Below are positions 488 to 32,830 of a DNA stretch of 33,809 nt, piece by piece. The notes beneath the pieces were generated by a model. The model worked only from the letters and a program-made list of their open reading frames with translations, did not search any database and was not told where the DNA came from. Source of the DNA: Lentisphaeria bacterium (GTDB lineage Bacteria > Verrucomicrobiota > Lentisphaeria > Oligosphaerales > PUNB01); contig SLSR01000032.1 in the NCBI GenBank assembly GCA_007130365.1, positions 1-33,809 on the forward strand, read 5' to 3'. The first letter of the stretch is position 1. The number at the start of each line of letters is the position of its first letter. The position numbers and the translations under genes are program-made.

Positions 488-3683
<3,196 letters not shown>

Positions 3684-12199: not shown

Positions 12200-12847
12200 G
12201 TGTCCGACCTGATTCCCAAACACGGCGGCTATCGCAAGCTGAAGAGTTTTCAGGTGGCGCAGTTGTGTTATGATGTAACGGTACGATTTTGCGAACGCTA
12301 TGTGGATCGCTTCAGTCGGACAAAGGACCAGATGGTTCAGGCGGCGCGGAGCGGGGTGCAGAATATCGCCGAGGGGTCGCAGGCTTCGGCGACTTCGAAG
12401 AAAACCGAGTTGAAGCTGACGCAGGTGGCGCGGGCGAGTCTGGAAGAACTGAAACTGGACTACGAAGATTTTCTGCGGCAGCGGGGACTGGTGCAATGGG
12501 AGCGTGAAAACCCGCACCGGCAGGAATTGATTGACCGGCGATGTCAAACCGCCGATGAGGTGGCGGCCTGGATTGTGGACACGGTAAAAAAATGTGGACT
12601 CGATGGACAGAGTGGACGCAGTGGACAAGCCGATGCGCCGTCCACCCAGTCCACCAAGTCCTCCAAGTCCACACCGTCCATTTTGTCCACCAAAATCTAC
12701 CCGGAGTTTTCGGCCAACGCCGCATTGGTTTTGCTCGGGGTCGCCTGTTCCCTGCTCGACCGGCAGGTCGAACGCCTGGCGCGGGATTTTGAGAATGAAG
12801 GCGGTTTTACAGAACGGCTTTACCGGGTAAGAAGCCAAAACCGTTAA
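12200..12847 (+). CDS. four-helix-bundle protein (23S rRNA intervening-sequence protein family) with the 'four helix bundle suffix' domain
   Basis: HGGYRKLKSFQVAQLCYDVTVRFCERY...SRTKDQMVQAARSGVQNIAEGSQASATSKKTELKLTQVARASLEEL...DYEDFLRQRGL matches my recollection of this family. GTG start at 12200, with GGAGG 8 nt upstream. Confidence 0.85.
   Translation: MSDLIPKHGGYRKLKSFQVAQLCYDVTVRFCERYVDRFSRTKDQMVQAARSGVQNIAEGSQASATSKKTELKLTQVARASLEELKLDYEDFLRQRGLVQWERENPHRQELIDRRCQTADEVAAWIVDTVKKCGLDGQSGRSGQADAPSTQSTKSSKSTPSILSTKIYPEFSANAALVLLGVACSLLDRQVERLARDFENEGGFTERLYRVRSQNR
12594..12690. repeat. mirrored 9-nt-periodic hexamer array inside the CDS: GTGGAC x4, then GTCCAC x6
   Basis: GTGGAC-type units at 12594, 12603 (ATGGAC), 12612 and 12621. 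GTCCAC-type units at 12640, 12649, 12658 (GTCCTC), 12667, 12676 (GTCCAT) and 12685. Spacing is strictly 9 nt within each half. The array encodes the low-complexity linker GLDGQSGRSGQA...STQSTKSSKSTPSILSTK. Confidence 0.7.
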
Positions 12848-12904: not shown

Positions 12905-13052
12905 GTATTATAGTATATTATACTTTACTTCACTATAAATTACTGCACTATACTAGTATAAATCCGGGTCAGGCACCTGCCCAGTTCAACCGGCCGCCCT
13001 GTAGGAAAGAGAACCCCGACCGCTTGACACTGCAAAAAAGTATAGTATAGTA
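12905..13052. promoter_or_regulatory. AT-rich spacer with TAGTATA-type repeats (candidate iteron/operator array)
   Basis: TATAGTATA at 12909-12917 and 13041-13049. A perfect 12-bp palindrome, TATACTAGTATA, at 12949-12960. CACTATA at 12931-12937 and 12946-12952. The region is clearly AT-rich within a GC-rich window. Confidence 0.45.
13024..13051 (+). promoter_or_regulatory. candidate sigma-70 promoter of the wHTH/FtsZ-like operon
   Basis: TTGACA at 13024-13029, a 16-nt spacer, then TATAGT at 13046-13051. The AAGGA RBS and the GTG at 13081 follow about 25 nt downstream. The -10 element overlaps one TAGTATA repeat. Confidence 0.45.
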
Positions 13053-13080
13053 AAAACAAACGAGGAATCATAAGGACGCT

Positions 13081-13431
13081 GTGGGTGTGGAAAGAGATTT
13101 CGAGCACAAGCTGTTTCGCGAGCAGGTCGGGGGTCTGCTGGAGGCGCATTTTCTGATCCTCTACTGGGCGGCGCTGGCTGAAGATCGAAAGCGCCGCTAC
13201 AACATCACCAACTGCTTCGACGACCTGAAGGCGCAGACCATCACCCGCACCAAGCAAACCGCGACCGCTCTGGTCGAAGCCCTGCAGGCTCTGCGCTTTC
13301 TCGATATCCGCGACGAAGGCAACCGCAAAAACGTCTATATCACTCCGTACGGGGCGAAAGCCCTGGAATCAATGATCCTGAACCAAACCTATTCTCCGCA
13401 AAAATCGCAATTTCTGGAGGTGCAATCATGA
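13081..13431 (+). CDS. small winged-helix DNA-binding protein (MarR/ArsR-like fold); candidate adaptor for the downstream FtsZ-like GTPase
   Basis: 116 aa. It shows a helix-turn-helix plus wing pattern: ITRTKQTATALVEALQALRFLDIRDEGNRKNVYITPYGAKAL. GTG start; 13087 is an alternative. The stop overlaps the next start in ATGA (13428-13431). Confidence 0.65.
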   Translation: MGVERDFEHKLFREQVGGLLEAHFLILYWAALAEDRKRRYNITNCFDDLKAQTITRTKQTATALVEALQALRFLDIRDEGNRKNVYITPYGAKALESMILNQTYSPQKSQFLEVQS

Positions 13432-14525
13432 CAGTCGGAATCGGCGGCGGCGGCGGCAAGCTGGCTTATGAACTGGATCCCCAATGCACGGTGGTCAACG
13501 TCTCGGAAGCGGAACTGCGCAAGCTGCCGACCGAGTCGCGCATCCTGGCCACGGTCCATTCTGCGCGCGGCCAAATGCGCGGCTCGCGCAAGGATCCGCA
13601 AATCGGCAGGGACGCCTTTCTCTCGGTGCGCGAGGAGCTGCTGCATCTGGCGCAGGGCGAGCTGGTCTTCTGCTCGACCGGCGGCGGCACCGGCAACGGC
13701 ATCGCCTCCGGCCTGCTGGCGGAACTGAGCGGCCGCGATCATGTCGCGCCGGCCGAAAAGACCTCGTTCGCCCTGATTCTGCCCTATGCCAAGCTGGAGC
13801 CGGCGGAATTCGTCGACAACACCATTGCCTTTCTGCAAGGCCCGTTGAGCGAGGCGATCGACAGTGGCAACACCGGCAACATCTTTCTCTTTTCCAATCG
13901 TCTGAAGTTCGAGACCCGCAGCTCCGAGGCCGACTACAACCGCGCCCTGGTCGACACTCTGATTCAATATCGGGCGATTCCGCGCAAGGGCGACGAGTGC
14001 AGACTGCTGGACGGCCACATCGACTATGAAGACTTCGCCCTGTACAGCGCCAAGCCCTATTTCAACCATTACACCAGCTTCGCCTTCAACCCCGAGGAAG
14101 GCTATGAAAAGCAATTCCAGGCCAACCTCAATCCCTACCTCCTGCCGCCGGAGAACCCCATCGAGGCGCTGTTCCTGCTGGAGGCGCCGCCGAACGGCGC
14201 GGCAACTCCGTTCTACGACATTCTGGAACACTTCGCCAAAGAGAACGTGAGCCCGGTTTTCGGCGTGGTCGAGAACCCGCAGGTCGAGCAGTATCACCTG
14301 ACCGTTTCGGTGCTCTATTCGCGCAAGCCCATGGAGCTGGTCGAGGACTTCAACCAGGTTTCCCACCGGCACACTCAGGCCAGGGTGCGCAAGTCTCTTG
14401 AGCAGCATGTGCCGCTGCCCAGACTGCAAGTCAACCTGGAAAGCGAGGCCAAGCGGGCAGGGCGACAGCGCGGCGCGGCCGACGAGGATGTGCTCAAGGT
14501 TTTACGCCGACTCGGCAAACTGTAG
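13428..14525 (+). CDS. divergent FtsZ/tubulin-superfamily GTPase (not in a dcw context)
   Basis: T1 loop GIGGGGGK. T4 signature STGGGTGNG. T7 loop LLDGHIDYEDF. FtsZ-like blocks NVSEAELRKL, DPQIGRDAF and IFLFSNRL occur in the canonical order. GGAGG lies 7 nt upstream of the ATG. 365 aa. Confidence 0.85.
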   Translation: MTVGIGGGGGKLAYELDPQCTVVNVSEAELRKLPTESRILATVHSARGQMRGSRKDPQIGRDAFLSVREELLHLAQGELVFCSTGGGTGNGIASGLLAELSGRDHVAPAEKTSFALILPYAKLEPAEFVDNTIAFLQGPLSEAIDSGNTGNIFLFSNRLKFETRSSEADYNRALVDTLIQYRAIPRKGDECRLLDGHIDYEDFALYSAKPYFNHYTSFAFNPEEGYEKQFQANLNPYLLPPENPIEALFLLEAPPNGAATPFYDILEHFAKENVSPVFGVVENPQVEQYHLTVSVLYSRKPMELVEDFNQVSHRHTQARVRKSLEQHVPLPRLQVNLESEAKRAGRQRGAADEDVLKVLRRLGKL

Positions 14526-14530
14526 AACCC

Positions 14531-14555
14531 GCGCCCCTGCGGGGCGCCGTTTTCC
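14531..14555 (+). terminator. rho-independent terminator after the FtsZ-like gene
   Basis: GCGCCCC-TGC-GGGGCGC, a 7-bp GC stem, followed by CGTTTTCC. It begins 6 nt after the stop codon. Confidence 0.6.
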
Positions 14556-14649
14556 TGATTAATTCATGCGAATTCGGCCATGAATCATTCATGAGGGCTG
14601 AAAGCTGAAGTCGGAGGGTGCTGGGTTCCGAGGTTCTGAGTTTGAAACT

Positions 14650-16789: not shown

Positions 16790-17894
16790 TTATTTCTGAT
16801 GGCGCAGCATGGCCTCGATAAACAGATCTATTTCACCGTCGAGAACATTCCCGACATTCGAAGTCTGCACCTCGGTCCGTAGATCCTTGACCATTTGATA
16901 GGGGTGCAGGACATAGGAGCGGATCTGGTTGCCCCAGGCGTTTTCGCTCTTCTCGCCATATTCCGCATCGCGCTCCCGGTTTCTCTTCTCCTCTTCGCGC
17001 TCGTGCATTTTAGCCTTGAGGATCTTCATCGCCTTGGCCCGGTTCTTGTGCTGCGAGCGTTCCTGCTGACAGGCCACGACGATCCCGGTCGGCAGGTGGG
17101 TGATGCGCACCGCGCTGTCGGTGCGATTGACATGCTGGCCACCGGCGCCGCTGGAACGATAAGTGTCGATGCGCAAATCCGCCTCTTCGATGGCAATCTG
17201 AATGTCATCGTCGACTTCGGCCACCACATCGACCGCGGCGAACGAAGTATGACGGCGCTGGTTGCTGTCGAACGGCGAAATGCGCACCAGGCGATGAACC
17301 CCCCGTTCGTGCTTCAAATAGCCATAGGCGTACTCGCCGGAGACGATCATGGTGACGTTTTTTACGCCGGCTTCGTCGCCCGCCTGACAGTCCACGGTTT
17401 CGAGCGAGAATTCGTGCTTTTCAGCCCAGTGCGAATACATCCGCAGGAGCATCTCGGCCCAGTCGCAGGACTCGGTGCCGCCGGCTCCGGCGTGAATGGA
17501 AATAATCGCGTTGTTCGGGTCGCTGGAGCCGCCGAGGAAGCTGAGCAGTTCAAGTCGGTCCAAATCGCCGACTATGGCAGACCAGACACTGTCCGCTTCG
17601 CGCAGCAGCTCGGCCGACTCTTCCGCATCGCCTGCCGCCAACTCTCCGAGCACCTTGAAGTCTTCAAACCGGGCCGCCAGCTTTTCGAACGGCTGAACGA
17701 TAGAGCGCGCCTGCTTCAGGCGCGCCACCGTCTGCTGTGCCGCTTCCTGGTCGTTCCAGAAGTCGGGCTGGCTCATGGCCTCTTCGAGAGTGGTCAACTC
17801 CTGCCGCCGTTTGGCGAGGTCAAAGAAACCCCCTCAAGTCATCGAGCCGTCTCCTGCCCTGACTTTCATATTCCGTGAATTCTTCAATATTCAT
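16790..17894 (-). CDS. prfB: peptide chain release factor 2, with a programmed +1 frameshift
   Basis: The track shows only 16790..17797. The ATG at 17894 gives MNIEEFTEYESQGRRRLDDLRGFL, then an in-frame TGA at 17822-17820 within AGGGGGTTT CTT TGA C. A +1 shift joins it to DLAKRRQELTTLEEAMSQPDFW... Downstream are the SPF-equivalent region and GGQHVNRTDSAVRITH. Confidence 0.93.
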
Positions 17895-26572: not shown

Positions 26573-26649
26573 TGGTCGGGGCGAGAGGATTTGAACCTCC
26601 GGCCTCTGCGTCCCGAACGCAGCGCTCTGCCAGACTGAGCCACGCCCCG
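26573..26649 (-). tRNA. tRNA-Pro (anticodon CGG), CCA encoded
   Basis: The reverse complement folds by hand as CGGGGCG-TG-GCTC-AGTCTGGCA-GAGC-G-CTGCG-TTCGGGA-CGCAG-AGGCC-GGAGG-TTCAAAT-CCTCT-CGCCCCG-A-CCA. 77 nt, with anticodon loop U-CGG-G (G37) and a GTTCAAAT T-loop. Confidence 0.93.
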
Positions 26650-26836: not shown

Positions 26837-28102
26837 CTACACGCCGCCCAACTGATCGATCAAGCCGATCAGCGGCAGGAACATGGCGATCACAATCGTG
26901 CCCACGATAACCGCCAGAAACACAATCATGATCGGCTCCAGCAAAGAGGTGAGGGCGTCGACCGCGCGATCCACCTCCTCTTCATAGACGTCGGCGATTC
27001 GATTCAGCATTTCCGGCAGCGAGCCGGTTTCCTCGCCGACTTCGACCATGCTGAGAACAATTACCGGGAAAACCCCGGAAGCCTCCATCGGCCGGGTCAT
27101 GCTCTCGCCTTCCTTGACCGCATCATGAACCGACTGGGTGGCGCGCGCGATCACCTCGTTGCCGGAAGTTTCCTTGACAATCTGCAAGGCCTGCAACACC
27201 GAAACTCCGGAATTCATCAGCGTGCCCAGAGTACGGCAAAGACGAGCCACCGAAGCGCGCACCGTCAATTGATTGACCGGCGGCATTTTCAGCAGCAGCC
27301 AATCAAAGGCAAAAGAGCCGCTTTTGCTCTTTTTGATCATCTTAATCGCGACGAAAAGGAGAACCATCGCAATAATCACGATCAGCCCATGGTCGCGGAT
27401 CGCATAGCTGGCCGCCATCACCAATTGGGTCAGGCCGGGCAGCTCCGCGCCATCCAGCATTTCGGAGAAGATTTCGGCGAACTGCGGAACCACAAAGTAC
27501 ATCAGGCCGGTGGTAATCGCGCCGGCGATCACCAGAACCGCGATCGGATAGGCGAGGGCGGACTTGACCCGCCCCGCGATTCTCTGCGCCTTCTCCATGA
27601 AGGTGGCCAGCCTTTCCAGCGAGGTTTCCAGCTCGCCGGAGGCTTCGCCGGCCCGCACCATGTTGACGTAGAGCTTGTTGAAGGTCTTGGAATGCTTGGC
27701 CAGGGATTCGGAAAAGTTGGTGCCGCCCTCGACCGAGTCGGCGAGATCGCCGATCACCCGCATGGTGCCGACATCCTTCTTGGACTGCCTCTCGAGAGTG
27801 CGCAAAGCCCGCACCAGGGGCAGCCCGGAATGCAGCAGGGTGGCCAGTTGCCGCGTGAAGGTGCCCAGCTTCTTTTTCTTGATCACCGGAGTGCCCAGGA
27901 CCATGCCGCCGCCCTTTTTGGCGGAGCCGCGCCGGGTGGCGGCACGGCCGCGCCCGGTTTTGCCGGAGGATTGTTTGAGGTTGGTCGGCAGCATGCCCAT
28001 TTGCTTGAGCTTGGCCGCCGCCTCCTGCTGGTTCGGAGCCTCGATTCTCCCGCGCTTTTCGTTGCCCTGACCATCCATTGCTGTATAAAGAAAGACCGGC
28101 AT
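26837..28102 (-). CDS. pilC: type IV pilus / type II secretion platform protein (PilC/GspF family)
   Basis: N-terminus MPVFLYTAMDGQGNEKRGRIEA, and two GspF repeats (FTRQLATLLHSGLPLVRAL; LCRTLGTLMNSGVSVLQAL). ATG at 28102, with GGGAGA 6 nt upstream; the track start is 28129. Confidence 0.92.
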   Translation of the reverse strand: MPVFLYTAMDGQGNEKRGRIEAPNQQEAAAKLKQMGMLPTNLKQSSGKTGRGRAATRRGSAKKGGGMVLGTPVIKKKKLGTFTRQLATLLHSGLPLVRALRTLERQSKKDVGTMRVIGDLADSVEGGTNFSESLAKHSKTFNKLYVNMVRAGEASGELETSLERLATFMEKAQRIAGRVKSALAYPIAVLVIAGAITTGLMYFVVPQFAEIFSEMLDGAELPGLTQLVMAASYAIRDHGLIVIIAMVLLFVAIKMIKKSKSGSFAFDWLLLKMPPVNQLTVRASVARLCRTLGTLMNSGVSVLQALQIVKETSGNEVIARATQSVHDAVKEGESMTRPMEASGVFPVIVLSMVEVGEETGSLPEMLNRIADVYEEEVDRAVDALTSLLEPIMIVFLAVIVGTIVIAMFLPLIGLIDQLGGV

Positions 28103-28169
28103 TATTAATTCTCCCGAGAGTTTGTTCAAGCCATTGTTTTATTGGTTTTGATCTTCATCGACAATCAGG

Positions 28170-29237
28170 CTATCGCTTTCCCTGAATCTTCTGCATCACG
28201 CTTTCCGGATCCCGGCACTTGGTAATCATGTCGCCATAGGAAATCAATCCCTTTTCGTAGATCTGCATCAAATGCGAGTCGAGGGTGAACATGCCAAACT
28301 TGGCGCCGGTTTGAATATCCGAGGTTATGCGAAAGGTTTTATTGTCGCGAATCGAGGCGCGGATCGAGGGAGTGGAGATCATAATCTCGAAAGCGGCCAC
28401 CCGCCCGGGTTTGTCGTGCCGCTGCAGAAGCACCTGTGAAATGACTGCGATCAGGGTGGTGGCCAACTGCGTTCTGACCTGCTCCTGCTGGTCGGTGGGA
28501 AAGGCGTCGATAATCCGGTCGATGGTCTCGGCCGCGCCGGTGGTGTGCAAAGTGCCAAACACGAGATGGCCGGTTTCCGCCGCCGTCACCGCCGCCCGAA
28601 TCGTCTCCAGATCGCGCATCTCGCCGACCAGAATAATATCCGGATCCTGACGCAGGGCTCGCCGCAAAGCCTCGTCGAAACTGGGCACGTCGACTCCCAG
28701 CTCGCGCTGGGTCACTATGCTGTTCTTGTGTTCGTGATAGAATTCGATCGGATCTTCAACCGTGATAATATGGCAGCCCCTCTCCCGATTGATGATATCG
28801 ATCATTGAAGCGAGGGTCGTCGATTTGCCGCTGCCGGTCGGGCCGGTGACCAACACCATGCCTCGCGGCCGATAGAGCAGCTCTTTGACCGACGGGTTCA
28901 GCCCGATATCCTCAAGGCTCATCAGAGTGTTGGGAATCGTCCGCATGACTACGCCAATATCGCCTTTCTGGCGAAATACGCTGACCCTGAACCGCGCCTT
29001 GTCGTCAAAGGCAAAGCCGAAATCGGTGCCTCCCTCCTGTTGCACCTTTTGCTCGTTCTGTTCAGAGATGATGCTTTTCATCAACCGTTCGGTATCTTCC
29101 GGCGTCAAGGGATCGGCTTCGAGCGGGATCAGCTCGCCATGCACGCGCAAAACCGGAGCCGACCCTACAGCCAAGTGCAGATCGCTGGCTCCCTCTTCGA
29201 TCACCAAATCCAACAAATCGGTCATTTCAATCGACAT
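28170..29237 (-). CDS. pilT: type IV pilus retraction ATPase PilT
   Basis: [16 protein letters not shown], Walker [10 protein letters not shown], Asp box, Walker B ILVGEMRD, and [11 protein letters not shown] prefer the ATG at 29237; the track starts at a TTG at 29258. Confidence 0.93.
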
Positions 29238-29269
29238 GACAATACCTTGCTTAGTCAATATTTGTATTT

Positions 29270-30985
29270 TTAAGTATACTTCAAAACTTCCTCGGCCGTC
29301 GACAACCCGTCGAAAACCTTGCGTATCCCGCTTTGCCGCAACAGGGTCATTCCTTCCTGCACCCCTTGATTGCGAATAGATATCGTTGGCTTGCGCTGGG
29401 TGATCAGATCCTGGACTTTCGGAGTGATTCGCAACAGTTCGAAAATTCCGACTCGCCCTCTGTAACCCGTCTGATTGCAGTTGGAGCAGCCTTTTGCATA
29501 ATAGAATTTACGGTCGCCGATTTCCTCCCGCGTCAAGCCAAGCAATTCGATTTCGCGGTCTTCCGGCTCGTAGGTCGTCTTGCAGGAATTGCACAAGCGC
29601 CTGATCAGGCGCTGAGCCAAAATCCCGATCAGGGTCGAGCTGACCAAAAACGGCTCGACCCCCATATCGATCAGCCGGGTGATGGCGCCCGCCGCGTCGT
29701 TGGTATGCAAGGTGCTCAAAACCAAATGACCGGTCAGAGAGGCTTGAATCGCCATTGCGGCGGTTTCCAAATCGCGAATTTCACCGACCATGATCCGATC
29801 CGGATCCTGCCGCAAAAAAGCGCGCAGAGCAGAGGCGAAGGTCATGCCGACGCTTTCCCTTACTCCGAGTTGCATGATTCCCTCCAGGTCGTACTCCACC
29901 GGATCTTCGGCCGTCAGCAATTTTTCTTCGATCGTATTGATTTCTTTAAGACCGGAATACAGAGTGGTGGTTTTCCCGCTGCCAGTCGGGCCGGTGACAA
30001 TAAGGATCCCGTTCGGCCGATGAATCAGTTCGCGAATCGATTCCAGCATGGCATCGTCCATACCAATACGCTCCAGATCCAGTTCAACGATGCTCCGGTC
30101 GAGAACCCGCAGCACGACACTTTCGCCGTATTGCGTCGGCAAGGTCGAAATTCGCATATCGATCGGTCGTCCTGCAATGCGCAATTCGATTCTTCCATCC
30201 TGGGGCAGGCGCCTTTCCGCAATGTTAAGGTTGCTGATAACTTTAAGACGACTGATCACCGGCAAGGCCAGATGTTTGGGCGGGGGCACCATCTCGTAGA
30301 GCGCGCCGTCGATCCGGTAGCGAATTTTGAACTCGTCGGCAAAGGGCTCGAAATGAATATCGCTGGCCTGATCCTTGACCGCCTGATATAGAATGACATC
30401 GACAAAGCGCACGATGGGGGCGTTGGTCGCCATCTCCTGCAACGCTTCCTCATCCTGCTCGTCATCACTATCCTGTCCTTCCATCAGGTGGGTGCTTTCC
30501 AGTTCGGCCAGCACATCCCTGACGGAATCGACATCGCGCGGATAGTAAAAGTCGACAGCGTCGTCGAGATCGGTTGGCGAAGCGACCAGAATCCGACAAT
30601 CCTGGCCCAGCACATAGTGCAGCTCGTCGATCATTCGATAGTTCATCGGATCGCGAGCCGCCACCAGCAGCACTTCGTCCTCTTCGCGAACCGGAATAAT
30701 TCCGTACATGCGAGCGATCGCGGCACTGATTTTGCCGATGATTTCACGGGGAATGGTCAAATCTTTCAAGTTAACCACTTCCGTGGCCAAATCATCGGCA
30801 ATCAACTGCAGCAATTTCGGTTCGCTGATAATGTCATAGTTGTACAATACCGTGGTAAAGGCTTTGCCGGTGCGCTCATGCTCTTCATAGGCCTCGGCAA
30901 GCTGTTCTTCGGTGGCTTTTTTGTGATCCAGCAGCAAATGCCAGATCGCATTGCTGGTGGAGTCCAGTTCGATATGCTGTTCCAT
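29270..30985 (-). CDS. type IV pilus assembly / T2SS ATPase (PilB/GspE family), paralog 2
   Basis: N-terminal GSPII_E_N-type domain, Walker [10 protein letters not shown], Walker B IMVGEIRD, His box [10 protein letters not shown], and a tetracysteine motif CNSC...CSNC. Confidence 0.93.
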
Positions 30986-31041
30986 GTTTCAACCCTGCAA
31001 TGAGTTTGGTCGACTGTCCAACGGCCTGCCCGGCAGTCTGG

Positions 31042-32766
31042 TCAATATTCAATATCCGCTTCATCGGAAGCGGTCACCCGAACTATTTCCTCGAGCGAAG
31101 TCATGCCATTGGCCACTTTACGCAGTCCATCCTCGCGCAAAGTGCGCATTCCGGAGCTTCGCGCATGTTCGCGAATTCGACTTGACGAAACCCCCTCGTA
31201 GATCAAATCCTGGGTGGCGTTGTCAATCATGAAAATTTCAAAGATTCCCCAGCGGCCGCGGTATCCATTGTTGCATTCGCCACAGCCTTTCCCCTTCAGC
31301 AACTGCTTGCCCGCGAAAAAGTCCTCGGGCAGGCGCAGCGCCCGCATGTGTACCGGATCGGGCTCCACTTCCTCGGCACAGGATTTGCAAATTCTCCGCA
31401 CCAAGCGTTGCGCCATGATCGCCTTCACGGCGGAAGCAACCAAAAAGGGCTTAACTCCCATGTCGATCAGCCGGGTCACCGCGCTGGGCGCGTCATTGGT
31501 ATGCAAAGTGCTGAAGACCAAATGTCCGGTCAAAGCGGCGTTGATCGCGATATTGCCGGTTTCCATGTCGCGAATTTCACCGACCATGATAATATTCGGA
31601 GCCTGCCGCATCATCGCCCGCAGAGAAGCCGCAAAAGTCATTCCGATATTGGGGTTGACATGCACCTGGTTGATTCCCGGCAGTTCGTATTCCACCGGAT
31701 CTTCCACGGTAATGATTTTGGTGGTCGGTTCGTTGATCGTATTGAGAAAGGCGTAGAGAGAGGTGGTCTTTCCCGAACCGGTCGGGCCGGTCACCAAAAA
31801 CAATCCGTCCGGCATGGCTATGATCCGATTGATCGTCTCCTGGTCGTCACTCAAAAAACCCAGTTCGGCAATTCCGAGCAGCATGCTGGTCTTGTCGAGA
31901 ATCCGCATAACGATCGATTCCCCGTGGGTCGTTGGAATATCGGACACCCGCAAATCCAATTCACGCCCCATAGTGTTGATCTGGATTCTGCCATCCTGGG
32001 GAATGCGATGCTCGGAAATATCCATGCGCGACATGATCTTTACGCGGCTGAGGATATTGTTCTGCAAATAGCGCGGGGGACTTTCGACTTCACGCAAAAC
32101 GCCGTCAATGCGATAGCGAACCCGAAATCTTTTTTCCAAAGGCTCCAAATGAATATCGGAAGAGCGATTTTTGAAGGCTTCCAGGATGATTAGAGAAACC
32201 AGGCGAATAATCGGAGCGTCTTCATCGCCGCTGCTCTCGCCGTCATCCAAAAACGCATCGGCGGTTGTGGTGTCAAACGAAGATACCGCGCCCTCGGTCA
32301 TTTCATCAAGAAAGCTTTCAACGCTGGTCTCGGCATCCCCGTAATGATAGTCGAGAGCCTCCATGATTTGTTTGCGGCTGACCACTGCGGGCTCGATGTC
32401 CAAAGACAGAATATGGCGCAACGAATCCAAAGTCTCCAGGTCGGTGGGATCAGCCATTCCGACCACCAGCATCTCGTCATTCCTGGTCAACGGCACCACT
32501 TTATAGCGTCGCGCCACGGCCGCCGGGATTTCCTTGACTACCTCGGATGGTATTTTGTAGTCAGTCAAATCAAATGTGTCCATGCCGTATTCACTGGCCA
32601 CCATCATCAGAACCTGGTTTTCCGGCATGATTTCCAAATTGCTCAAAGCCTGAGTGACATCAACGTTCTTTTCGTCGACATAGGCCTTAACTTCGTCGGC
32701 CTGCTGATGCGAAATAAACTCGCGAGCCGTCAACAGGTCCAAAATCAATTCATCATTCGCAGTCAC
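31042..32766 (-). CDS. type IV pilus assembly / T2SS ATPase (PilB/GspE family), paralog 1
   Basis: Same architecture as paralog 2: [27 protein letters not shown] and CKSC...CGEC. I prefer the GTG at 32766 (AAGGAG 8 nt upstream); the track start at 32793 is a TTG. Confidence 0.92.
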   Translation of the reverse strand: MTANDELILDLLTAREFISHQQADEVKAYVDEKNVDVTQALSNLEIMPENQVLMMVASEYGMDTFDLTDYKIPSEVVKEIPAAVARRYKVVPLTRNDEMLVVGMADPTDLETLDSLRHILSLDIEPAVVSRKQIMEALDYHYGDAETSVESFLDEMTEGAVSSFDTTTADAFLDDGESSGDEDAPIIRLVSLIILEAFKNRSSDIHLEPLEKRFRVRYRIDGVLREVESPPRYLQNNILSRVKIMSRMDISEHRIPQDGRIQINTMGRELDLRVSDIPTTHGESIVMRILDKTSMLLGIAELGFLSDDQETINRIIAMPDGLFLVTGPTGSGKTTSLYAFLNTINEPTTKIITVEDPVEYELPGINQVHVNPNIGMTFAASLRAMMRQAPNIIMVGEIRDMETGNIAINAALTGHLVFSTLHTNDAPSAVTRLIDMGVKPFLVASAVKAIMAQRLVRRICKSCAEEVEPDPVHMRALRLPEDFFAGKQLLKGKGCGECNNGYRGRWGIFEIFMIDNATQDLIYEGVSSSRIREHARSSGMRTLREDGLRKVANGMTSLEEIVRVTASDEADIEY

Positions 32767-32830
32767 GGCACCGACTCCTTGAAAAAAGAACAAAAATCCG
32801 AAAATTTATATTTAAAAACACAATTTAGTT

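Follow-up and report, generated by a model that had tools for sequence, protein, structure and literature searches.

A candidate TubZRC-like module of a winged-helix protein and a tubulin-superfamily GTPase on Lentisphaerota chromosomes

The module and its locus

The window described here is a stretch of 33,809 nucleotides from a Lentisphaeria bacterium (assembly GCA_007130365.1, contig SLSR01000032.1, positions 1 to 33,809). Its plus strand carries a two-gene operon that encodes a small winged-helix protein and, directly downstream, a GTPase of the FtsZ/tubulin superfamily, and arrays of short direct repeats lie ahead of the operon. An earlier note on this DNA, made from the sequence alone, had singled out the GTPase as a divergent relative of FtsZ outside any division context and had proposed a filament module of the TubZ/TubR type. 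The elements of the module, in their order along the window, are as follows.

12906-12960 (no strand): distal block of AGTRT-type pentamers, a tubC-like candidate centromere/operator, from an array scan and repeat finding
12907-12921 (+), 12910-12934 (-) and 12940-12954 (-): arrays within the distal block, from the pentamer-array scan
13024-13051 (+): predicted sigma-70-type promoter of the two-gene operon, TTGACA, 16-nt spacer and TATAGT, with 11/12 consensus matches
13038-13053 (+): proximal pentamer array AGTATAGTATAGTAA, overlapping the -10 hexamer, where autorepression is predicted to act; it makes up the other half of the split element
13081-13431 (+): TubR-like winged-helix protein of 116 amino acids (aa), with a GTG start at 13081
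13428-14525 (+): FtsZ/tubulin-superfamily GTPase, TubZ-like in its context, 365 aa, with an ATG start
14531-14557 (+): intrinsic-terminator-like hairpin with 7 G-C pairs and a T-rich tail, 6 nt past the GTPase stop, closing the operon

The TGA stop of the small gene overlaps the ATG of the GTPase gene (ATGA), which bears out the coupling of the two genes described in the earlier note, and a GGAGG Shine-Dalgarno sequence lies 7 nt ahead of this ATG. The length of the small protein varies with the gene call: NCBI gives 114 aa in a genome that is 99% identical, and homologs are typically about 108 aa long. An exact look-up of the GTPase protein returned no identical record. A 99%-identical copy is found in the metagenome-assembled genome (MAG) GCA_003557425.1, where the gene order is that of the window.

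A divergent GTPase of the FtsZ/tubulin fold

The earlier note had quoted seven motifs from the 365-aa reading frame and, for six of them, the counterparts in Escherichia coli FtsZ. The counterpart strings are correct, and the seven motifs are located as follows.

residues 4-11: GIGGGGGK
residues 24-33: NVSEAELRKL
residues 56-64: DPQIGRDAF
residues 83-91: STGGGTGNG
residues 152-159: IFLFSNRL
residues 193-203: LLDGHIDYEDF
residues 352-365: C-terminal peptide DEDVLKVLRRLGKL

Profile searches place the protein at the margin of the superfamily. Of the two Pfam families that the earlier note had named for such a search, Tubulin (PF00091) matches with an E-value of 5e-5 and 24 bits, below its gathering score of 33, and FtsZ_C is unmatched; Tubulin is the only Pfam family at E<=1, and Tubulin_2 is likewise absent. 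The TIGR00065 ftsZ model gives 19.1 bits against a cut-off of 295.2. A phmmer search of the PDB with the single sequence recovers FtsZ chains (E 5e-5) in an alignment confined to residues 3-101. When the profile of the GTPase family is used instead, the top match is an FtsZ, at E 7e-7 over the N-terminal 107 residues, followed by TubZ/RepX 4ei7 at E 2e-5 over residues 17-209, and tubulin chains reach E-values of only about 0.1-0.5 in these PDB searches.

The AlphaFold2 (AF2) model, built with 24 homologs, has a predicted local distance difference test (pLDDT) score of 86 and a predicted TM-score of 0.81. Foldseek comparison of this model with the PDB puts FtsZ on top (E 5e-17, TM-score by target (TMt) up to 0.76, about 320 columns), and TubZ 2xka is matched with a TM-score by query (TMq) of 0.67 over 395 columns; phage FtsZ and PhuZ models are also among the matches. 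Since the alignment covers the complete FtsZ core, both domains of the FtsZ fold are present, and the order of helix H7, loop T7 (DGHIDxEDF, residues 195-203) and helix H8 is that of FtsZ. The two-domain fold is thus accompanied by T1 (GGGxG), T4 (GGGTGxG) and an acidic T7, the features by which the superfamily is recognised, and to judge from the model the protein is a genuine, though very divergent, GTPase of the FtsZ/tubulin fold, as the earlier note had proposed.

In the alignment of the 24 homologs (53-77% identity), residues G4, G6, G7, G9, G86, G87, G89, G91, N157, D199 and D202 are invariant; both acidic positions of T7, which the earlier note had read as preserved, are therefore kept throughout. 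The C-terminal L..R.GK is invariant as well. It belongs to a peptide that follows a variable linker of low model confidence (residues about 326-350) and that is strongly amphipathic and basic, as had been noted before; its helical hydrophobic moment (0.81-0.88) exceeds the one calculated for the membrane-targeting sequence of FtsA. The tail as a whole, first acidic and then amphipathic, is in the style of TubZ-like tails.

An undescribed family and its placement

A word-indexed search retrieved 309 homologs of the GTPase, nearly all 364-367 aa long and 53-99% identical. Those with a source name are called "hypothetical protein" and come from Lentisphaeria, Lentisphaerae or Victivallales, with occasional Kiritimatiellota labels, and some bear the label "Tubulin/FtsZ GTPase domain-containing protein" that UniRef assigns automatically. 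Across Lentisphaera, Oligosphaera and Victivallales the identity is 47-77% and the catalytic residues are intact. An exhaustive hidden Markov model (HMM) search of 1.84 billion representative proteins found only 3-4 full-length family clusters at 50% identity, with E-values down to 1e-114; the next full-length matches start at E 4e-6, which leaves a large gap. Almost all of these remote matches are TubZ-like by their own BLASTP similarity to TubZ of pBM400 or a B. velezensis plasmid (E 1e-12 to 1e-54), and one is a canonical FtsZ.

Direct comparisons of profiles by hhalign lean in both directions. Against two plasmid TubZ sequences the GTPase family scores 90% (E 1.5e-6, 191 columns including T7), and against E. 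coli FtsZ together with a second FtsZ, P0181, it scores 95.7% (E 1e-8, 193 columns), where P0181 is itself a remote match of the query profile, so that only the TubZ pair is free of selection. A 15-member TubZ-like profile gives 99.4% and E 7.5e-22, a value inflated because most of its members were picked as matches of the query profile. In the T2 region, the signature N-x-S-x-x-[DE]-L is common to the GTPase family and TubZ-like proteins, and FtsZ has N-T-D-x-Q-x-L. The statement of the earlier note that the sequence looks FtsZ-like rather than TubZ-like therefore holds for the small profiles (1e-8 vs 1.5e-6) and fails for the remote matches, the T2 signature and the tail, which are of the TubZ type. 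We read the family as what appears to be a separate deep lineage with no secure place beside either, a placement that phylogeny would not be expected to resolve at identities of 15-20%.

The GTPase matches no curated TubZ model and reaches the threshold of no curated model at all. We found no description of the family in the literature on TubZ/TubR systems and Lentisphaerae, and two surveys of the tubulin superfamily make no mention of Lentisphaerae. The family is undescribed, which the earlier note had suspected. BtubA/B of Prosthecobacter are non-FtsZ tubulin-superfamily proteins of the Planctomycetes-Verrucomicrobia-Chlamydiae (PVC) group, and the GTPase resembles them, as it resembles FtsZl-1/FtsZl-2 of Makarova and Koonin (2010), in being a further tubulin-superfamily paralog that coexists with FtsZ. 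FtsZl-1 and FtsZl-2 belong to the Tubulin_2 family and have a VWA/OmpA/GTPase neighbourhood (PMC2875224), whereas the present GTPase has neither a Tubulin_2 match nor VWA, OmpA or GTPase neighbours. Membership of the FtsZl/Tubulin_2 group was rejected on the lack of a Pfam match.

Distribution, and the relation to divisome FtsZ

A scan of one genome per species yielded 79 loci that carry the module, among them those of Oligosphaera ethanolica DSM 24202, Lentisphaera marina and two complete MAG chromosomes. The proteins WP_007277112.1 of L. araneosa HTCC2155 and WP_274150351.1 of L. profundi share a cluster with the family protein of L. marina. The family appears to be single-copy and is conserved across the phylum, and this, together with its marginally better score against FtsZ in the small profile comparisons (where the FtsZ pair included a selected match), could suggest that it is simply the real, highly divergent divisome FtsZ of these organisms. 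The two proteins do share recognisable T1, T4 and T7 loops, with identical T7 spacing (H-I-D-Y-E-D vs N-V-D-F-A-D in FtsZ), the two-domain fold, and the arrangement of a flexible linker followed by a C-terminal peptide. However, the GTPase lies far below the equivalog cut-off (19 bits of 295), lacks a match to FtsZ_C, has T2 as N-V-S-E-x-E-L (N-T-D-A-Q-A-L in FtsZ), T3 without GAGA and a different tail. It is never found beside ftsA, ftsQ or mur genes, neither in the entire 33.8-kb window, as the earlier note had remarked, nor in the 79 related loci, where dcw neighbours are absent altogether.

The Lentisphaera species also argue against this view. L. araneosa has been reported to encode a canonical FtsZ (PMC5147048), and a 2025 survey found the dcw genes including ftsZ conserved in Lentisphaerota, represented there by L. 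profundi (PMC12283558). Because both species carry the family as well, the GTPase coexists with divisome FtsZ, and the same probably applies to the genome of the window. A search for canonical ftsZ and parS in 1.13 Mb of fetched Lentisphaerota DNA gave none, a null that is uninformative because the coverage per genome is tiny. That the GTPase serves as the divisome FtsZ is in our judgement extremely unlikely, in keeping with the earlier note, and its candidacy as the sole divisome FtsZ was rejected on equivalog score, context and the coexistence in Lentisphaera.

Some members of the family carry labels from outside the phylum. The protein P0334 (MEI6891215.1), from a MAG labelled Pontiella sp. 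(Kiritimatiellota), is one of them, and the MAGs of loci L030, L077, L047, L062, L050 and L057 (with P0334) are labelled Pontiella sp./Kiritimatiellota, Myxococcota, Bacteroidaceae or Anaerovoracaceae. Since Kiritimatiellota is a sister lineage, its members may be genuine; the Myxococcota, Bacteroidaceae and Anaerovoracaceae labels look like binning or labelling errors.

The winged-helix partner and the pairing of the genes

The small protein belongs to a family of its own, with 268 homologs, that is co-distributed with the GTPase. Its homolog lies directly upstream of the GTPase gene in 77/79 loci, both exceptions being contig ends, and the junction measures -4 to +10 nt in 63/65 measurable loci. 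The survey of neighbourhoods suggested in the earlier note thus found the pair kept almost everywhere, and apart from a kinase gene in 29 loci it is the only conserved neighbourhood in the 79; of the other window genes tested, from that for GAPDH to that for the TPR protein, none is conserved beside the module.

The AF2 model of the small protein is a winged helix with a pLDDT of 95. Foldseek matches it to MarR-, ArsR- and PadR-type regulators and to TubR; the best TM-scores are those of TubR of pBM400 (4asn_A; TMq 0.62, TMt 0.79, root-mean-square deviation 2.9 Å), and TubR 3m8e_B is also among the matches. In a search of all PDB sequences with the small-protein profile, the single match below E 0.01 is again TubR 4asn_A, over nearly the full length. 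By hhalign the similarity to TubR is 91% (E 1e-6) when a single TubR sequence is used and 94% (E 1e-7) for a profile of two, in an alignment that spans the full length. The upstream gene therefore encodes a winged-helix protein whose best match, in sequence and in structure, is TubR. Identity is only about 20% and the comparison is one of sequence and predicted structure. In the small-protein family two motifs are invariant: TRTKQ, with which the recognition helix begins, and N-R-x-N, which lies in the wing. Ni et al. in 2010 are said to have found that TubR contacts DNA at the N-terminus of the recognition helix and at the wing; conserved basic residues at these two sites, and the place of the gene directly upstream of the GTPase, are what the small protein has in common with TubR.

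The one recurrent third gene encodes a Ser/Thr kinase of about 340-550 aa. It lies directly 3' of the GTPase gene on the same strand in 29 loci of the Oligosphaera and Victivallales clades (for example L027:9327-10721(+), and others at L009 and L019-L034; Pfam Pkinase, E 2.7e-29). The gene is absent from the window, and an HMM built from the kinase found no divergent copies downstream of the module in the remaining loci. Where present, the kinase may phospho-regulate the module.

Repeat arrays upstream of the operon

Ahead of the small gene, the intergenic DNA is AT-rich and abounds in TATAGT/ACTATA. Repeat finding carried out independently of the array scan recovered a family D1 with 4 copies and a 32-nt inverted repeat I1 in the window, and the distal block and the proximal array together form this imperfect 32-nt inverted repeat, 84 nt apart. 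Repeats of the AGTRT type recur in the related loci. In 52 loci the DNA ahead of the small gene contains the 8-mer AGTATAGT (84 copies vs 0.8 expected), and a position matrix of the upstream regions has a 5-bp periodicity that corresponds to tandem AGTRT pentamers. If an array is defined as three or more AGTRT units, (AGTRT)n arrays lie upstream of the small gene in 67/77 loci within 450 bp and in 70/77 within 800 bp. In all, 135 arrays fall in the 35.7 kb of upstream DNA vs 34 in the remaining 1.05 Mb, and many of these 34 sit just past the 450-bp limit. Dinucleotide shuffles of the upstream regions contain 2.1 +/- 1.5 arrays where 136 are observed, and not one is present in 354 GC-matched control windows from other parts of the loci; an origin of the repeats as an artefact of AT-richness or of promoters was rejected on these two controls.

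The arrays comprise 3-10 units. In 39 loci they form two or more blocks that are separated by at least 60 bp; the median span is 128 bp and the longest 690 bp. In 16 loci head-to-head arrays diverge from a ACTATAGT palindrome. At many orthologous loci a TTGAC-type -35 element is followed by a -10 region that contains repeats. A search of the upstream region with Rfam gave no known RNA, its only RNA match being a tRNA-Pro elsewhere in the window.

The upstream region of tubR in pBM400 (L081:2920-2997) contains AAGTATCT/AGTATCTAT three times, 30-38 bp apart. The core of these elements resembles the AGTAT pentamer of the Lentisphaerota arrays, a resemblance that may be due to chance.

The confinement of the arrays bears on the idea of a GTP-dependent transcriptional switch, in which the GTPase would modulate how the winged-helix protein binds DNA, or the other way round, and distant genes would be regulated with no force being produced. 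The tight coupling of the two genes and a winged-helix fold typical of MarR/ArsR regulators speak for it. The arrays, however, are confined to the upstream region of the operon itself in the 1.1 Mb examined, and the T7 residues that are needed only for polymer-dependent hydrolysis are invariant. We regard such a switch as very unlikely.

A chromosomal and non-mobile setting

The characterised TubZRC systems all reside on mobile elements, either plasmids or phages (PMC6009700), and this raises the thought that the present module might be a decaying or selfish remnant of a partition cassette, left by an integrated plasmid or prophage and without function for the host. The setting argues otherwise. 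The window is ordinary chromosome in which housekeeping genes flank the module, and the GC of the third codon positions of the GTPase gene (0.81) is of the coding type and matches the host, a genome of about 60% GC. The flanks are wholly different in the other genomes, GCA_003557425.1 excepted, and the module is found on chromosome-sized records of 1.9-5.7 Mb. The length of the GTPase is fixed at about 365 aa and its catalytic residues are intact at 47-77% identity. No match to the module was obtained by tblastn among 72,556 plasmids and 50,697 phage records, a scan of IMG/VR gave no relative, and PHROGs and PADLOC returned nothing meaningful; an origin in a mobile element was rejected on these searches. 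The module is chromosomal and non-mobile, and it is probably inherited vertically. A selfish remnant seems to us highly improbable.

In L. profundi (locus L084, CP117811.1, 2719542-2740639) the module is located about 78 kb from the end of a 2.81-Mb replicon, in an assembly of two replicons of about 2.8 and 2.65 Mb.

Comparison with TubZRC systems

The TubZRC systems of pBtoxis, pXO1 (RepX), B. megaterium pBM400 and C. botulinum phage c-st have the same three-part layout as the module: split short direct repeats, then a winged-helix protein of about 100 aa, then a tubulin/FtsZ-fold GTPase of about 370 aa, with genes that overlap or abut. In pBM400, tubR (101 aa) overlaps tubZ (374 aa) by 4 bp, a junction like that in the window. 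Known tubC sites are always upstream of tubR, consist of direct repeats split into blocks, and cover the promoter that TubR represses (PMC6009700), and at the level of sequence the upstream arrays described here match this description point for point, with one block of repeats over the promoter. The GTPases of both have a variable linker and a short conserved C-terminal tail, the partner is a profile homolog of TubR, and the remote relatives of the GTPase are mostly TubZ-like. The TubZ/TubR-type architecture named in the earlier note is borne out by the partner, with TubR as its best match, and the repeat arrays, which that note had not seen, strengthen a TubZRC reading.

The differences are equally plain. 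The module is chromosomal, lies among housekeeping genes, is conserved across a phylum and did not turn up in the collections of plasmids, phages and viruses. Between the GTPase and every TubZ there is a very large gap (E about 1e-6), no TubY was found, and the repeat unit of the module is the 5-bp AGTRT pentamer; the iterons of phage c-st are also short, only 4-5 bp, and spread over more than 350 bp (PMC6009700). As it is borne by neither plasmid nor phage, and its GTPase falls outside the recognised TubZ and FtsZ families, the module is not a member of a described family.

A possible role in positioning DNA

The analysis establishes the fold of the GTPase and its conserved catalytic residues, that the partner is a homolog of TubR, how the operon is built, the repeats with their conservation, and a setting that is chromosomal and not mobile. 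From the architecture of the operon and its repeats we infer a function for the module and, with it, DNA binding, polymerisation, a contact between tail and adaptor, and a cargo. The winged-helix protein would bind the pentamer arrays upstream of its own gene cooperatively, and on these arrays it would form a higher-order, centromere-like nucleoprotein complex and also repress the operon, a repression suggested because the proximal array covers the -10 hexamer. The GTPase would polymerise with GTP and hydrolyse it across the subunit interface by way of the intact T7 loop. By analogy with TubZ tails, the invariant amphipathic C-terminal peptide on its flexible linker would couple the filament to the complex of winged helix and DNA. 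The dynamics of the filament might then move or position a chromosomal locus and contribute to the segregation or positioning of the chromosome, the module acting beside the canonical divisome FtsZ and not replacing it. The intact T7, the variable linker and the invariant tail are indirect signs which, by comparison, could point to treadmilling with the tail engaged at a TubR-tubC complex. We consider the balance even as to whether the module is a self-contained chromosomal counterpart of the type III (TubZRC) partition systems that positions DNA.

The arrays could also belong to a filament with a cargo other than DNA, in which the winged-helix protein is a mere repressor of its operon and the GTPase serves cell shape, envelope remodelling or accessory division, its filaments possibly tethered to the membrane by the amphipathic C-terminal helix. 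The repeats lie beside the operon alone, one array overlaps the -10, the tail is strongly amphipathic and basic with the high moment given above, the family is chromosomal and conserved in the manner of a housekeeping gene, and the kinase at 29 loci suggests cell-cycle or envelope signalling, all of which suit such a filament. On the other hand, as many as 10 tandem units in 2-3 blocks over hundreds of base pairs are seldom required by a simple repressor, the best match of the partner is specifically TubR, a centromere-binding adaptor, and the tail of the GTPase resembles TubZ-like tails. We think an autoregulated filament of this kind possible but on the whole unlikely; a centromere accounts better than an autorepressor site for how large and how split the arrays are, and for the specific affinity to TubR.

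Several observations nevertheless count against a role in DNA partition. In absolute terms the small protein is only weakly similar to TubR (PDB E 0.0056), and the Foldseek E-values of MarR-type regulators are close to those of TubR. The small profile comparisons put the GTPase slightly nearer to FtsZ than to TubZ. The repeats occur beside the operon only, which plain autoregulation would give likewise, and there is no conserved TubY-like third component at the 79 loci, the kinase being the only recurrent third gene. The sole lead towards oriC comes from L. profundi, where the module would be origin-proximal only if the record starts at oriC. A chromosomal cargo would in any case be an extrapolation by analogy, because all characterised type III systems sit on plasmids or phages.

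Bacterial chromosomes are thought to depend on ParABS, SMC and entropic forces for their segregation, and to our knowledge DNA segregation of the tubulin type (type III partition) is known only from a few plasmids and phages of Bacillus and Clostridium. If the proposal holds, a host-encoded TubZRC-like module across a phylum would extend tubulin-based movement of DNA to chromosomes, as a spindle-like machine made from a relative of tubulin and owned by the host rather than by a plasmid or phage. It would also give the PVC group, already atypical in its cell biology, a third tubulin-superfamily lineage beside FtsZ and BtubA/B. We put forward with considerable reserve, as a doubtful but attractive possibility, that a cytomotive filament of the tubulin superfamily segregates or positions the chromosome in Lentisphaerota and perhaps in some Kiritimatiellota, which would make this the first chromosomal and vertically inherited system of the TubZRC type. 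Should the cargo not be DNA, the family would still be a new bacterial cytoskeletal protein with a dedicated regulator. The three-part cassette of about 1.7 kb, with its predicted DNA site, is directly testable, and its cultured carriers are Lentisphaera araneosa, L. profundi, L. marina and Oligosphaera ethanolica.

Other features of the window

The genes that surround the module in the window are the following.

before the module: GAPDH, a GreA-domain protein, an NtrC-type regulator, a DeoR-type regulator, 2-oxoacid dehydrogenase E1/E2/E3 and a four-helix-bundle protein
after the module: transketolase, release factor 2 (RF2), ExbB, a large TPR protein and type II secretion/type IV pilus ATPases

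The transketolase gene is the next gene 3' of the GTPase and lies on the opposite strand. The four-helix-bundle protein (12200-12847, +), of the 23S rRNA intervening-sequence protein family, is encoded directly upstream of the repeat block and has a low-complexity insert rich in Ser, Thr and Lys in addition to a TIGR04258 "four helix bundle suffix" domain. The GreA/GreB-domain protein (1563-3683, -) is 706 aa long, and its Gre domains are confined to residues 546-684; its N-terminal extension of 540 aa has no Pfam match, and GCA_003557425.1 has a gene call of identical length (706 aa). The reading frame of release factor 2 (prfB; 16790-17880, -) begins within the PCRF domain, and the N-terminus is expected upstream in another frame, the programmed +1 frameshift arrangement that is classic for prfB. 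The tRNA-Pro(CGG) gene lies at 26573-26649. Three consecutive genes for GspE/PilB-type ATPases (362, 571 and 583 aa) are found at 26837-32793 (-), beside a GspF/PilC gene.

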